A DNA stretch of 64,000 bases from Octopus sinensis (Eukaryota). How positions within the stretch are numbered: the stretch's first letter is position 1; each line of letters starts with the position of its first letter. Below are positions 7,508-58,136 of this stretch, piece by piece. The notes under the pieces are model-generated. The model had not been told where the DNA came from, ran no database searches, and saw nothing but the letters and a program-made list of their open reading frames with translations. Both the position numbers and the translations under genes were made by a program. The stretch spans positions 58,528,001-58,592,000 of the forward strand of contig NC_043002.1 in assembly GCF_006345805.1 (NCBI RefSeq), read 5' to 3'.

Positions 7508-7591
7508 CCGCGTAAATCCGAACAGTTCCTTTTTCAATCGCTCTCGTTCTTCACTATCCTTCGAATGGTTTTTCTTCAGAAATTTCAACAT
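7508..7591 (-). CDS. lgl: First coding exon of a lethal(2) giant larvae (Lgl/LLGL) homologue; whole exon about 7508-7664 including 73 nt upstream of the ATG
   Basis: ATG at 7591 reads MLKFLKKNHSKDSEERERLKKELFGFTR and ends at a strong phase-0 donor CGG|GTAAGA. The upstream acceptor is ...tctctacatatccAG|G at 7665/7664. The peptide matches remembered N-termini of Drosophila Lgl (MLKFIRG...RLQKDLFAYRK) and human LLGL1/2 (...REKLKQELFAFNK / RERLKRDLFQFNK). The expected next exon (T.xHGFP) is not seen in 1-7500. Confidence 0.85.
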
Positions 7592-8005
7592 TGTGTGTGG
7601 TGTGACACCAGTGGCAGACGGCGACAAAAAAAGAAACTGTTTTGTTTGTGTTAAAGGTGCAGACCTGGATATGTAGAGATATAAATTGGGTAAAATATTT
7701 TTTTAAAAAATAGATAGAGAGGTAGGTTGGTAGTTAGGTAATTGTGGTGGTGGTAGAAGTAGTAATAGTGATAAAGGTGGTAGCAATGACAGTAGATAGA
7801 GTAAGAGGAGAGAAAGAAGAAAGGGGGAGGAGAAATATAATGAGAGAGTAAGTGAATGAAAAGGACGAATGAGAGAGTGTAATTGAAGGCGAAGAGTGAG
7901 AGATGGAAAGTGAATGAACGGAAAGAGTGGGAGAGCAGTAGATAGAAATAGATGAGAGGCAGAGAGAGTGAAAGTAAGTCAATAAAATAGCGTGAGAAAG
8001 AAGGA

Positions 8006-8160: not shown

Positions 8161-11100
8161 AGAGAACTCTTTAGTAAAGTAAGGTAAGAAATGTAAATAT
8201 GGCCACGGCTGTAGTAGAAACTGTCGGCTACCGTTGAGGAAGCCGGGAAGTAATAAAGGCAGAGTAAATGAGAGAGATACAAGTAGGAGTTGGAGGACGG
8301 AAAGTAGAGAGTTAAAGAAATAGAGAAGGGAGATTAAGCAGGGAAAGATTAAAGAGGACAGTATGAGAGAAAAGAGAACATGAAAACTACCCTAAGGCGG
8401 CCCAACTACATCTCTATATATTAATGATAGACAGGTTTTTTGACAAAAGAAAATATAAAACTGTGAAATAATAATTAATCATAGCTGTCTATTTGAAATA
8501 TTCGGGCGATCTAGCGAACTTTGTACATGTGTGTCCTCCAGAGGAAAGAGTTTAAAATATTTGAGTATGCGTTGTGTGTATATGGTTTCTTAGTTATTGA
8601 GGTTTTTGTCTTTTTAAATTAACATTGGAAAGTCAAACATCTACTCCATCGATATGATTTTAAGAAAATCTCATTTGTCAGGAACAAGCGAAAAATACCG
8701 ATTTTTAAAAATAATAGAGCAGATGTGTAAACACAGAAGCAAAATGTGAAAGATAGCTAGAGACAGGAAGAGATACACAGATAATAATATTGAAAATTCG
8801 GCTAATACATAGTAGAGACAGAGAAGAATGTAGTAACCCTCGGTGTATATATTTAACATTCATCATTAAACGATGATTTCATGATAACAATAAAATTCCT
8901 AAATCAAATCAAGTTTAATTAGTTGTAACTTACGTGATTGCAAGCTTAAATATATTCCTTAGAAAGAACAGGATAAAGTGCACAGCTAGATTCCAAATAT
9001 GCGCCTAACACAACAACACCACAGCTCTACATACAACTTCTGAGTCGCGGGCTCTCTTTCTCTTCTTACAGTCCCCCTCTCTCTCTCTTTATCTTTCTAT
9101 CTACCTCACTATTTCTCTCTTACTATTTCTTCCTCTACATCACTCTCTCTTACTCTTTTTCTTTCTTTCTCTCTCTTTGTGCGCGCAAACTAGCTATCAC
9201 ACTTCACATCATAAAATCGAATATAACATCAAGTTTATTTTACTGAGAATTACAAAAAAATCGTTAGATAGGTTAAACATATATTTCTTATACCGTTTGA
9301 CGCTTATTTTTTTGTCAATTTGTCATCGAAATACAGAGGACTATATATTTCGCAGTCGTAGTATTAATGCGCTAAGCATTTAAAGCAACGACCACATGTC
9401 TGGAAGGGAGCCCTTTTAAAAAGAGTTGTATTTAGCTGAAGGCTGTTACGTTACCCCTAATTCTAGCTTTCCTTTCTCTCTATGAAGGGATTTGAAATTT
9501 TTTCTTTTTTATTTTGATTGCCGCGCTCTATTTTTATAAGCCAATAGGGAAAGTGTACGCGATATGTGGTGACTAATCTTTTCAAAAATATTTGGACAAT
9601 TATGTTTATTATATATTCTCAGGAGCTTTAGTTCAATTCAAGACCAGCTGTTGCCTGTGACTGCCTGACCTTACTACAAGTTTATTTCATACCGATCATC
9701 ACAATACATGCTCTAATTTTTGAAGTTCTCTCTTATTCATTTTGAAAGGCGCTCCAAGTTGACATACGAAAATTTTATTTTAAAAGAATAAGTGTTTTTA
9801 TTTCAAATATTGCCGGGTTCAACTTCAGCTTTCATCCTTTCGAGGGTCGCTTAAATGAAATACGAGCCAATCGATTAACTCTTTCCCCACCGAATTTCAG
9901 ACATTGTGCCGTTGTTAAAAGCAATAATTAAGTTCGATATTAAATCATTATTAATCACCTATCAAAATTTAATCGTCACTTGAAACGATTCAAGAGATAT
10001 CACTGTATGCAAGATATGACTTATTCGAGATCTTATAGAACAATAAAGACAACCGCCAAAGTGAAATAGTGTAGCATAAACAGCGTTTATTTCCTGTCTG
10101 CTACTAAAATATGTCAATCTAATTAAAGTAGCGCTGATTAACAGAAGCAATTCACAGACCTCGGTATTTTAATAAAATTTTAATGCGTATGCAATAAAAT
10201 ATACATAGCTATTTAATAACACTACCCGACGAGTAGTTTCTATAACTTTTTTTTTTCCTGGTGAACTGTGTCCATGTAGTTTCGATCATAAGCAGTTACA
10301 AATGTAGCTGAGAAAAGCATGAATGTCCTGTAATCTCATTTCCACTTTTATTTTATTGTGTAGCCTTGCGCTCATAAATGAATGCTGAGTAAAAAAATGT
10401 TGTCGGCGTAATTTGATGACAGTCAAGTAAAATAAGTACAAATTGTTATTCAGTATAGATATTTGATAAACCATATTCTGTAAGAAAGGTTGTTAAGGGT
10501 GATCAGTTGGAGATATTTATCGAAGACTTGAGTCAGTAACATCTCTGTGCGTCGGCAGCCAAAGCACACAACTTTCAATGGCCCAATCTACCTAACTGCA
10601 AAAGAGACGTATGTTTCGTCAGCTTGTATACTAAGTTCCACGCCGCCTCCCTTAGAGACGTCTGGCTTGCCTTGGATACACTGCATGGAAACGAAGCCTT
10701 TTAGTGTTGACTCTTACAACAGAAAATACTACGAGACACAGCCTGAGGGTATGGGGGGAGAACAGTCGTCAGAACGAAAAGGCTGAATCGATAAGATATT
10801 TTTGAGTATGAAGAGTTTAAATCCAGGTGTTCTGGTGTGTGTCTATATGCAGAATATATAGAAGCGCTGGCTCGAGAGAACAGATACCTGGCTATTCTAA
10901 GAAAATTACCTGCATTGAACAAGCGATCTGCTCAAATGGAAATTTATCTCCAGTTCGTTTAACACTGCAGAAACCATTGTTAAATGCAGACATAACAGAG
11001 TGCGTCTATATATTTATTCATTTATTCACTCTTTTCATTAGTTTCCTGTTTAATGGTGTCGATCATTGAAATGTAGCAACGCTGAGCACCGCCTCCAGAC

Positions 11101-40747: not shown

Positions 40748-40964
40748 GTACCTATTTCTTTACACAGAGAGGACAATCAAGGACAAACAAACGGATTAAA
40801 TCGATTATATGGACCCCAGTGCGTAACTGGTACTTATTTAATCGACCCCGAAAGGATGAAAGGCAAAGTCGACCTCGGCGGAATTTGAACTCAGAACGCA
40901 ACGGCAGACGAAATACCACTGAGCATTTCGCCCGGCGTGCTAACGATCCTGCCAGCTCGCCGCC
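40748..40964 (-). mobile_element. SINE family A
   Basis: Near-consensus reverse-complement copy. Other copies lie near 38085-38290(-) and 41640-41815(+). Confidence 0.88.
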
Positions 40965-41197
40965 TCTGTCTCTCATACCTACGAATCCTACCCCGCAAAA
41001 AACAAAACATCCCAACACTCTTTTTCAAACTACTTACATATAGTGGTTCCCAAAGTGGGCGGTATTGTTCCCCTGGGGGCGGCGGAAAGTTCCAAAGGGG
41101 CGTTAAAGAAAAGTGGGGCAATAATGGGATAGGGATTAATGTAAAAACAACAAAAAAATGGGTTCATTAGGTTAAGTTTTATTTGTGAAATACAGTT

Positions 41198-41483
41198 CAT
41201 TATCTACATTATTTACATTAGACGGATATGTGTCCTCATCTTGTTTGTTGTTAACACAACGTTTCGGCTGATTTACTCTCCAGTCTTCATCAGGTGTCCT
41301 GATGGAATTTTGAACCCAACCCTGGGTTCTCATTCCTAAGGAATTTTTTTGCTGGTGTTATTATCAGGACACCTGATGAAGGCTGGAGGTTAATCAGCTG
41401 AAACACAAGATGAGGACACGTATCCGTCCAATGTAAATAATGTAAATAATACACAGAATTCCTCTTCTCTAAAATGTAGAACG
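41198..41483. mobile_element. Palindromic Penelope/retrozyme-like element with hammerhead cores
   Basis: Inverted arms at about 41198-41303 / 41363-41450; 13-bp direct repeat GTGAAATACAGTT at 41185-41197 and 41484-41496. Confidence 0.8.
41253..41298 (-). ncRNA. Minimal type I hammerhead ribozyme motif
   Basis: The minus strand reads GACAC-CTGATGA-A-GACTG-GAGAGTAAAT-CAGCC-GAAAC-GTT-GTGTT. It has both conserved cores, stem I GACAC/GUGUU, stem II with one mismatch, a palindromic ACGU stem III and a GUU cleavage triplet. Confidence 0.65.
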
Positions 41484-43504
41484 GTGAAATACAGTTGGTT
41501 TGAATTTGCTTCAGAAAGCGGTCTATGTTTGTAATGGTTAGTTGGGGTAAGGGCGCTAGGAATGTGGCCTGAGAGTAAAGGGGGCGGCAACCCGAAAATC
41601 TTGGGAACCACTGAGTAAGCAATCAGTCAATTTTTACTTGAGCGAGGGCTACGAGCTGGCAGAATCGTAAGCACGCCGAGCAAAATGCTTAACGGCATTT
41701 CGTCCGCCTTTATGTTCTGAGTTCAAAGCCCTCCGAGGTCGACCCATCCACCGGGGTCGATAAAATAAGTATCACTTGCCCCTGAAATTGCAGGCCTTGT
41801 ACCAAAATTTGAAATTAATATTTACTTGTAGCGGGTGTTTATAAACACAAGATACGCATAGATACGGACTGACACGATTCGGGACCGAAAACAGGATTAG
41901 AACTACTTTTATTTCATTTATCTCACTAATGGAATTTGGAAAGCCATGGAAATCACAACATTCTAAATGATACCCTAAATTCTAGTGTTTTGTCGCTGTA
42001 AAATAAAAACGAAAAATTTCTAAATTAAAAAAAAAAAACAAGGAGAGAGAAACCAATATTTATTTTATTAATACACGCACTTAAAATAGCTGTGTGCGGG
42101 CCATCGAAGAATAAAACCGAACGTTTACCTTGGCGTGTTGTTAAAAAAAGCGACTAAAGGACGCTAAGGTCGGATTTGCGCTCTGACCTGAGTGCTGCAG
42201 AGGCGACATCTACTAGGGGTAGTAGGGAATCACCAGCAAATGGTGGATGCAGCAACGCGCTGTTACAGAGCATGCCCTCATACTACTACTACTACTACTA
42301 ATGCTGCTGCTACTGCTACTGCTGCTGTTGATGACGATGATGCTAAAAACAGCTGGTTAGCTGGCTTCCATGACCTATAAGCGACCGAGATCAAAACATT
42401 TCCCTTGCCATTCAGGCGCAGGGTTTACTCATTTAACAGATGAGTGAACTGAAGCATGGACTGAATGGAGTGTTTTGCTCAAGAACCATTTTCATCAGGT
42501 TCAATATTTTCGCTCCGGACTCATAGAACGGTTTGCGATTTGAGGCAAACTGAAACCCTTCGGATTAATAATCCGACAACGTGACACCTGGGGCAGTTGC
42601 GACCATCACGTTGTCTGTCATTACTTCCCAACCACATGGTTCTGGGTTCAGTCCCACTGCGTGGCAACTTGGGCAAGTGTCTTCTACTATAGCCTCGGGT
42701 TGACCAAAGCCTTGTGAGTGGATTTGGTAGACGGAAACTGAAAGATGCCTGTCGTTAGGCGCGAGCGTGGCTGTGTGGTAAGAAACAAGTATGTTTTTTA
42801 CTTCTGTTTTGAAATGCCATGTAGATTTTTTTAAAGACTTCAGCGAGACCACCTTCATGAAATGTCGCAATATAGAATGTGGTCCTCTTGGGCGCAGGAC
42901 CTCCATCGGGCCAATCGTCTTAAGGCAGTCAGCTACCCTATCCTAACCGTTATCACTCCCCAATGTAGGATTCTTTCCCAATACAGGTGACCGGCACAGC
43001 CGTAAGATCCATTACGGATCTATAGCAATTGGAAGGGCGTGACCCAACTCAAATGAACATTAAGAACTGTGTGACGTGAGGTCTAGGGGAAATGAAAGTG
43101 TCACCTCTGGAGTTTGCCAATGGTCACTATGCCGATAGGTAATTGAACAAAATAAATTTGCAATCTATAAATCTATTTGAATGACCAATCACTTATCTGG
43201 AAAGGTCTGGAAATCAATTTTACCATCTGGAGACTATCTCTGACCCAGTGATAATAAAAAGACTCAAAGGAGGTAACTAAATAACTTTACTCAAAAGAAC
43301 ACTTTGCAGCTGAATCAGTGGAGGCAAAGATGCTTCTCCTTGACTTGGCAATTTATGCACCACATTGCAGGAATCACAATTTAAGTATATCTCAAAGCAA
43401 ACCCTTACACTCTTGTAGCATTGAATTGCAAATAACGCTCATCTTGTATCCTCGGGGGACTCAACAGCTTCCAAGACTACAATTGCATTCGTCTTGGCTT
43501 AGGA

Positions 43505-47266: not shown

Positions 47267-47535
47267 GATAAATACGACGGGCTTCTTTCAGTTTCCATCT
47301 ACCAAATTCACTCATCAGGATTTAGTCGTCCCGAGGCTGTTGTAGAAGGTACTTACCCAAGCTGCCACGTAGCGGGATGAGATGCGTTACTGGAAAACAA
47401 AGTTCTTAACGGTTCTGGGTTCAGTCCCGCTGTGTGTCACCTTAGGCATATGTCTTCTACTACAGCCTCGGGACGACTGAAGCCTTGTGAGTGGATTTAG
47501 TAGACGTAAACTGAAAGAACCCCGTCGTATATATG

Positions 47536-57250: not shown

Positions 57251-57645
57251 CAGGAATAAGGACAGCTTGGTCCAACTCATTCACTCACCATACTCAGACA
57301 CCGTGGGAGAGTTGTGGAAATTAAAAAAAAATTAAGCTAACAATCACAACGATGGCAGTGCTCTAGCATGGGCACTGCTTCTTAGAGAAAAGAGGCAGAA
57401 TGGTCACCCACGACACTATCACCATGTAGAATGAGAAGAAGAGAGAAAGCGAGCGAAAGTCAGAGAATATTCGAACTCGGTAACAGACTGGTGCATTATC
57501 TATTGACATAGTCACAAAGTCAGGCATTCTGAGGGTGGGTGTTGAGTGTTATTAATCTGGTATTCCGTCGGTTACGACGACGAAGGTTCCAGTCGATCCG
57601 ATCAACGGAACAGCATGTTCGTAAAACTCCCCAGACACGCGTATC

Positions 57646-57870
57646 AATTATTTACATTATTTACATTATTTACATTTGACGGATATTTGTCTTCGTCTTC
57701 TTTGTTGTTAACACAACGTTTCGGCTGATATACCCGCCAACCTTCATCAGGAGGATATATCAGCCGAAACGTTGTGTTAGCAACAAAGAAGACGAGGACA
57801 AATATCCGTCAAATGTAAATGATGTAAATAATGTACACAATTCCTTACCTCTTAGATATAGAATTGCATT
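57646..57870. mobile_element. Second copy of the palindromic hammerhead-bearing element, inserted in a family D SINE tail
   Basis: Arms TTTACATTTGACGGATATTTGTC...AACACAACGTTTCGGCTGATATA / TATATCAGCCGAAACGTTGTGTT...GACAAATATCCGTCAAATGTAAA; direct repeat ACGCGTATC at 57637-57645 and 57871-57879. Confidence 0.8.
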
Positions 57871-58136
57871 ACGCGTATCGATATCGTTCTCAGGGAGATT
57901 CGGCATGACACAGAACGTAACCAAGGTTAGCCCATTGAATTACAGGTACTCTTTATTCTTTACTCTTTTACTTGTTCCACTCATTTGACTGCGGCCATGC
58001 TGGAGCACCGGGACTTATTCTTTGTAAGCCTAGCAGTTATTCTACCGATCTCTTTTGTCGAACCGCTAGGTTACGGGGATGTAAACATACCAGCATCGGT
58101 TGTCAAGCGATGTCGAGGGGGACAAAAGAGACATAT

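Follow-up and report, generated by a model that had tools for sequence, protein, structure and literature searches.

A truncated, inverted Penelope-like insertion with opposed hammerhead motifs in Octopus sinensis and its likely copying from one RNA

The 286-bp palindrome at 41198-41483 of the window (the whole 64,000-nt stretch of Octopus sinensis DNA analysed here, NC_043002.1, positions 58,528,001 to 58,592,000) is very probably a 5'-truncated, inverted insertion of a Penelope/Poseidon-like element (PLE), in which the RT-EN is likely to have primed both nicked target strands, at two start sites, from one RNA. In itself the insert is ordinary: it consists of two truncated copies of a PLE end joined head to head, and as a decayed product it belongs to a known class. 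Its parent family is less ordinary than the window copy in two features, a rule of one tail per inverted copy and a tRNA-derived segment in the pLTR. The family may already sit in Repbase, Dfam or the repeat libraries of earlier studies (PMC13282606, PMC8557442, PMC4209133). The features of the window are collected in Table 1.

Table 1. Features of the insert, its host repeat and the neighbouring gene (window coordinates).
Feature	Position	Strand	Basis or remark
lgl ATG exon (first coding)	7508-7664	-	contigs
lgl spliced 5'UTR exon	8932-9068 (or to 9044)	-	contigs of two studies, presumed RNA
Host hAT-like MITE split by the insertion	41041-41613	.
Left copy of 13-bp TSD	41185-41197	.	direct repeat and empty host copies
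Left arm: (AAT)n linker, ATG, hammerhead, short (tailless) PLE 3' end	41198-41364	-
45 open codons, PLE ORF N-terminus, overlapping the hammerhead	41198-41333	-
Minimal type I hammerhead, core intact, stem I of 5 bp, A.C mismatch in stem II at 41284	41253-41298	-
Right arm: from just before the hammerhead to the long (tailed) PLE 3' end	41363-41483	+
Broken hammerhead, 16-nt deletion removing the cleavage site and stem I 3' strand	41368-41404	+
PLE tail of about 33 nt, right arm only	41451-41483	+
Right copy of 13-bp TSD	41484-41496	.	direct repeat and empty host copies
Second inverted PLE stub, sister subfamily B, one short and one tailed arm	57646-57870	.	9-bp TSD

The insert is flanked by exact 13-bp direct repeats. 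All 19 copies of the host repeat examined elsewhere carry the target sequence once and lack the insert, so the 13-bp repeat is a true TSD, and the insertion described in the initial annotation stands. The host element, about 273-281 bp long, has terminal inverted repeats of the CAGTG type, and a first look at the genome gave 1,626 candidates for it. Among four other copies with both ends located, an 8-bp TSD is exact in one (L162), near exact in two (L146 and L157) and lacking in one (L155); the window copy has its terminal inverted repeats without the 8-bp TSD. An inverted pair of another repeat, which we take to resemble a cephalopod SINE, lies on either side of the MITE (40825-40964 and 41647-41777). 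Within the insert, the left and right arms overlap by 2 nt at their junction. Folded as a single strand it forms a long hairpin (-152.1 kcal/mol, z -19.5), and matches to Rfam miRNA models in the region were set aside as reflections of this palindrome hairpin. The second stub in the window has its 9-bp TSD at 57637-57645 and 57871-57879; the TSD scan used was loose and had no chance control. The arms of this stub meet inside the hammerhead and have private variants in common.

Copies of the insert were searched across the 2.7-Gb genome, where the insert as query gave 4,023 first-look candidates, 40 of them scored. Walking upstream from the arm leads to a tRNA-like segment, then to an endonuclease and then to an RT, and the numbers of candidates drop with distance (4,023 for the arm, 2,636 for the tRNA-like segment, 1,840 for the endonuclease and 326 for the 5' RT region), as expected for 5' truncation. 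At two loci (L133 and L138) the arm continues into the PLE ORF, and the same segment is found before the ORF at these loci and after the ORF, that is, as a pLTR in partial tandem with a hammerhead. The minus arm, which had been called non-coding, reads open for 45 codons, beginning with the ATG at 41333, and its product resembles the N-terminus of P0085, a full-length relative (12/17 residues identical, E 2e-5). Because the arm runs into the ORF, opens at this ATG and matches that N-terminus, the arms are the pLTR and ORF-start segment of an EN+ PLE.

The parent family, seen in decayed copies only, has a single ORF with an RT followed by a C-terminal GIY-YIG-type endonuclease. Its RT matches PF00078 (E 5.7e-6, below the curated cut-off). 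Pfam searches with four pieces of the ORF returned no family for three of them and no direct GIY-YIG match, and the endonuclease was recognised by alignment. A 300-residue piece covering the RT thumb and endonuclease matched 123 RT proteins at E<=1e-10 with PLE-like architecture, and an 836-residue Anolis protein (P0121) is colinear with this piece, 33% identical with 3% gaps. When the distant P0121 endonuclease was used to search the genome, all 30 loci fetched belonged to the insert's own family. Domain order and the colinear P0121 alignment, rather than an RT tree, place the parent as an EN+ PLE of the Penelope/Poseidon type. Thus the Penelope-like link proposed from the window is borne out and the expected GIY-YIG/RT partner has been found in the genome, as decayed copies; stops and frameshifts occur in all copies examined, and no intact ORF was seen among them. 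Copies differ by about 6% from their subfamily majority. Their 5' ends are scattered between the hammerhead and points over 2 kb inside the ORF, so the insert is the truncated, inverted end of its parent, not the separate non-autonomous family that had been suggested. Three loci (L038, L039 and L040; C2:86.10-86.43 Mb) have flanks 92-99% identical and were counted once as a segmental duplication. In the search for relatives, neither scanning metagenomes with a single protein nor scanning viral sequences gave a match, and an alignment scan gave 80 more distant metagenome loci.

Minimal hammerheads in PLE pLTRs, including opposite-strand pairs 100-700 bp apart, have been noted in the available text of an earlier survey (PMC4209133). 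A pattern search of the window placed core motifs in both inverted arms, at 41261-41293 (minus) and 41373-41404 (plus), in agreement with the initial annotation; core matches in the window number four, against 0.30 expected. One further core-like match (47291-47318, minus strand) has no evident stem II and is probably a chance match, given the 0.30 expected. The pattern has 4,912 exact matches genome-wide against four for a control, and 99 of the 100 matches listed look by eye like the insert's PLE family. Both the family and the minus arm have the conserved core, an extra base before position 10.1, a G10.1-C11.1 pair and a palindromic stem III. The description of the minus arm as a complete minimal type I hammerhead holds for the core, stem I, the palindromic ACGU and the GUU, with a predicted cut between 41258 and 41257, and fails in stem II, where the mismatch at 41284 replaces the second pair, G-C in the family. 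The plus arm has indeed lost its cleavage site. Rfam hammerhead models, the check that had been proposed, gave no match to 40800-41900 at E<=10.

Pairing in the stems was compared in 46 of the 80 metagenome loci, picked for a match near the ORF end. Twenty of these 46 relatives have a downstream core, found without demanding pairing, and merging near-identical sequences and adding one octopus copy left 15 families. Across them 115 of 135 cells are paired (shuffle mean 77.6, maximum 97 in 5,000), a contrast that the relatedness of the families inflates and that is not a probability. The same positions of stem I hold C-G, A-U and U-A pairs in different families. Covariation of stems I and II was therefore found across the 15 PLE families; within the octopus family there is none, and subfamily A has a stem I mismatch. 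The N-terminal peptide of P0085 over the hammerhead differs from that of octopus in a way that would be compatible with a compensatory change in stem II.

The two motifs of the window copy lie on opposite strands, so they cannot act as a dimer within one transcript. When the full 286-nt strand is folded, all ten pairs of stems I and II have probability 0.0, and the palindrome is predicted not to cleave. Since the motifs are on opposite strands, pair with each other and are both damaged, the copy is probably dead and without function, having decayed after insertion. The suggestion that the intact motif might cut lgl pre-mRNA was examined through transcript contigs. To the left, 59 kb away, lies an LLGL-domain exon whose matched part is 100% identical to an lgl-labelled protein of Octopus vulgaris. 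The gene is on the minus strand, so the intact motif does lie on its sense strand. The leader and ATG exons are separated by an intron of 1,269 nt. In two studies lgl contigs end at the leader exon with no loose end (a weak hint, the runs being presumed RNA); contigs from four other runs are unspliced and stop somewhere from 7.7 kb to at least 7.95 kb, which suggests that lgl has two starts, and a further run has no contigs here. Because the contigs end about 32 kb from the insert, itself a weak hint, an intronic position and pre-mRNA cleavage are not supported, and the insert probably lies in intergenic DNA at that distance upstream of lgl. A second LLGL-domain gene occurs at C24:16733985-16734140 (L092) and is, we assume from its sequence features, tomosyn-like.

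The way in which PLE insertions become inverted and acquire a tail at one end is described as an open question (PMC8557442). Inverted truncated copies, often with a 30-40 bp tail at one end, are known from other PLEs (PMC8557442, PMC2377424), and the octopus family likewise shows 5' truncation, inverted copies and a tail of this length, often at one end. The 3' ends of its copies are bimodal, about 35 nt apart. After removal of duplicate loci, 67 of 71 outward-facing pairs combine a short and a tailed arm, four are short/short and none is long/long. An earlier pass over 127 loci gave 51 of 54 inverted pairs with one short and one tailed arm, and loci that were not found with a palindromic query gave 28 of 31. 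Of 69 classified pairs, 68 have arms of a single subfamily. Non-CpG variants common to the two arms of a copy number 34, against 10.4 when the pairings are shuffled (maximum 20 in 2,000 shuffles). One tailed and one tailless arm per copy, together with private variants shared by the arms, suggest that both arms were copied from one RNA.

Poseidon_Ac (PAc), a PLE of Anolis carolinensis, cuts and extends both strands in vitro, two internal start sites define its tail, and its protein is predicted to be a dimer (PMC11167929). Taken with the family pattern, these properties make one RNA copied twice, from one start site per nicked strand, the simplest reading. In the fuller mechanism, to which we give slightly better than even chances, a dimeric PLE protein would make a staggered cut 13 nt apart, its two subunits would start at different sites of the same RNA, the short site and the tail site, and both cDNAs would stop early and join at the 2-nt microhomology. 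The shared variants could also come from conversion inside the palindrome or from a single source locus, and the tail at one end could reflect endonuclease trimming or resolution of an intermediate; the available text of one report explains the one-end tail by endonuclease resolution (PMC8557442).

Two other origins of the palindrome are much less probable. An origin as a DNA element of the MITE kind, or through later fold-back duplication of a single arm, would suit its long inverted arms, the hairpin of -152 kcal/mol and the private variants common to both arms; it is very improbable, because the arms stop at two fixed sites 35 nt apart and never have two tails, the TSD flanks both arms together and the sequence is that of a PLE ORF start. 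Only marginally less improbable is a separate family of non-autonomous, retrozyme-like elements that process their RNA with paired hammerheads and possibly cut lgl pre-mRNA. Short palindromic copies are common (12 of 28 loci in a positional sample are inverted pairs), and retrozymes have been proposed to derive from pLTRs (bioRxiv 10.64898/2026.07.22.740005, available text). However, each locus has its own junction and arm lengths, the fold of the palindrome gives the catalytic helices a probability of 0.0, and lgl contigs stop near 9.07 kb. Such a family also needs head-to-tail ribozymes on the same strand, and none was seen among the loci inspected. Truncated, inverted insertion of the parent PLE from one RNA is the reading kept here.

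Upstream of the hammerhead, between the PLE stop codon and the ATG, the family has a 73-nt tRNA-derived segment followed by (AAT)n. Against the whole Rfam tRNA model its alignment is weak (15.7 bits, E 0.52, below the 29-bit cut-off), and against 15 of 15 distinct genomic tRNA sequences it scores above all 300 shuffles (z 3.2-6.7). An expression for the consensus of boxes A and B matches 12 of 16 octopus control copies and none of 20 relatives. Searches with the Rfam tRNA model at E<=0.5 over eight family loci gave no match, and ARAGORN called no tRNA at default settings in 13 loci nor at -ps60 on the majority head; its call of one head (L058) at -ps70 was discounted, many chance sites being called as well. 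A palindrome on a metagenome contig (L326, 1647-1940), with two head-to-head tRNA-like units (50.5 and 47.1 bits, Rfam tRNA), was considered as a second tRNA-headed pLTR and rejected as an unrelated insert after a truncated PLE. That insert has long inverted arms like those of head-to-head PLE stubs, but no hammerhead.

The position of this segment raises a reading, compatible with the main one, in which many copies would come from short SINE-like RNAs started by Pol III at the tRNA-derived segment and inserted by the PLE protein. From the sequence we would place it somewhat below an even chance. Beyond the tRNA resemblance, the head has 2,135 exact matches in the genome against none for a control. 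Among the first 30 head-match loci that reach position +2, 21 stop at -10 to +1, and two more end at -14 and -17, where the inverted arm mimics the upstream sequence. The rate of 5' ends is 0.093 per nt at the head, against 0.0095 and 0.005 further upstream, and an earlier arm-anchored count had placed 31 of 39 ends at -6 to +40. At one locus (L342) the copy runs cleanly from head to tail and is flanked by a 13-bp TSD; among host-flanked head-start copies with a 3' end, a TSD was found in one of three. The sense strand of the 2,757-nt majority scaffold has no run of four T, and subfamilies A and B differ inside the boxes by three purine swaps only, at 9, 15 and 57, which the boxes presumably tolerate.

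Several of these points fit other readings or are slight. The absence of T runs is weak (2.8 expected in the longest frame, P about 0.03), and three of 73 relatives also have none in the ORF, although T runs in the relatives overall are about as frequent as expected (407 against 399). A hairpin spans -14 to +10 of the head (for example in L206 and L058), in which the pair -13/+9 differs between subfamilies A and B in a compensatory way, and of the 23 ends that start at the head 16 join an inverted arm, six join host DNA and one joins a same-strand PLE. Because the hairpin spans this region and 16 of the 23 ends are inversion junctions, fold-back or stalling of the RT fits too. A stricter recount in the positional hammerhead sample, with 13 of 38 arms unresolved in microsatellite, put the excess at no more than two- to threefold, with 0.011 per nt compared to 0.006 and 0.0035. 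Conservation of the head is not above that of the ORF end (6/73 against 11/221), and the window copy stops short of the head. Host-flanked ends are spread over positions -7 to +2, which makes cutting by RNase P at +1 a disfavoured explanation.

A more specific proposal, that the PLE took up a tRNA-derived Pol III promoter in its pLTR, cleared its sense strand of Pol III terminators and makes both a full-length RNA and a SINE-like RNA of about 300 nt that the dimeric RT would copy twice, from two start sites, to give the palindromes, is tentative and rather doubtful. The short RNA would consist of the tRNA head, the hammerhead and the RT start sites. If true, the family would hold a PLE-driven SINE that has not separated from its parent element, and would serve as a model for the origin of elements of the Schistosoma Sm-alpha type. 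No tRNA-derived promoter in a PLE pLTR was found in the titles and beginnings of abstracts covered, subscription journals being outside the scope.

PAc is among the closest known systems, and P0121, the Anolis protein 33% identical to the octopus piece, is probably PAc itself or a near relative of it. As described in the available text for PAc, both have an RT followed by a C-terminal GIY-YIG-type domain, a hammerhead over the ORF start and two internal 3' ends that give a tail of 30-40 nt (PMC11167929). They differ in that the octopus ATG lies 40 nt before the core, whereas the PAc ATG is at stem II (PMC11167929), and in the tRNA-derived segment and (AAT)n linker that precede the octopus ATG; the octopus copies seen are not intact. 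The hammerhead itself resembles the minimal type I motifs of metazoan PLEs in the extra base between 9 and 10.1, the G10.1-C11.1 pair, the palindromic 15.2-16.2 and the short stem I, with a stem II of 5 bp against 7-8 in schistosomes, the copies in the octopus window being damaged (PMC4209133). Like Schistosoma Sm-alpha and Sj-alpha, for which a tRNA-related Pol III promoter followed by a hammerhead is described (PMC6765202, PMC2770079), the octopus family has a candidate promoter ahead of its ribozyme; unlike those non-autonomous tandem repeats, it has this arrangement inside the pLTR of an ORF-bearing PLE. Helenus and Cassandra (TRIMp3) also have promoter-like sequence derived from a small RNA in a terminal repeat, but are non-autonomous LTR elements with PBS and PPT, and the available text of that report mentions no PLE (PMC10886601). 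Non-LTR retrozymes share the type I hammerhead and a kinship with pLTRs (PMC7229834; bioRxiv 10.64898/2026.07.22.740005). These are head-to-tail tandems that make circles, in contrast to the inverted window copy with its opposite-strand motifs (PMC7229834). The available text of a report on octopus repeats mentions neither hammerheads nor ribozymes (PMC13282606).

The near-strict one-tail rule and the variants shared between arms make the model of one RNA and two start sites testable in the PAc in vitro system. A tRNA-derived promoter in a PLE pLTR would link PLEs, SINEs and the hammerhead-bearing Sm-alpha elements. Octopus genomes may contain thousands of stubs of this sort under wrong labels, whether as SINEs, MITEs, microRNA hairpins or ribozyme genes.
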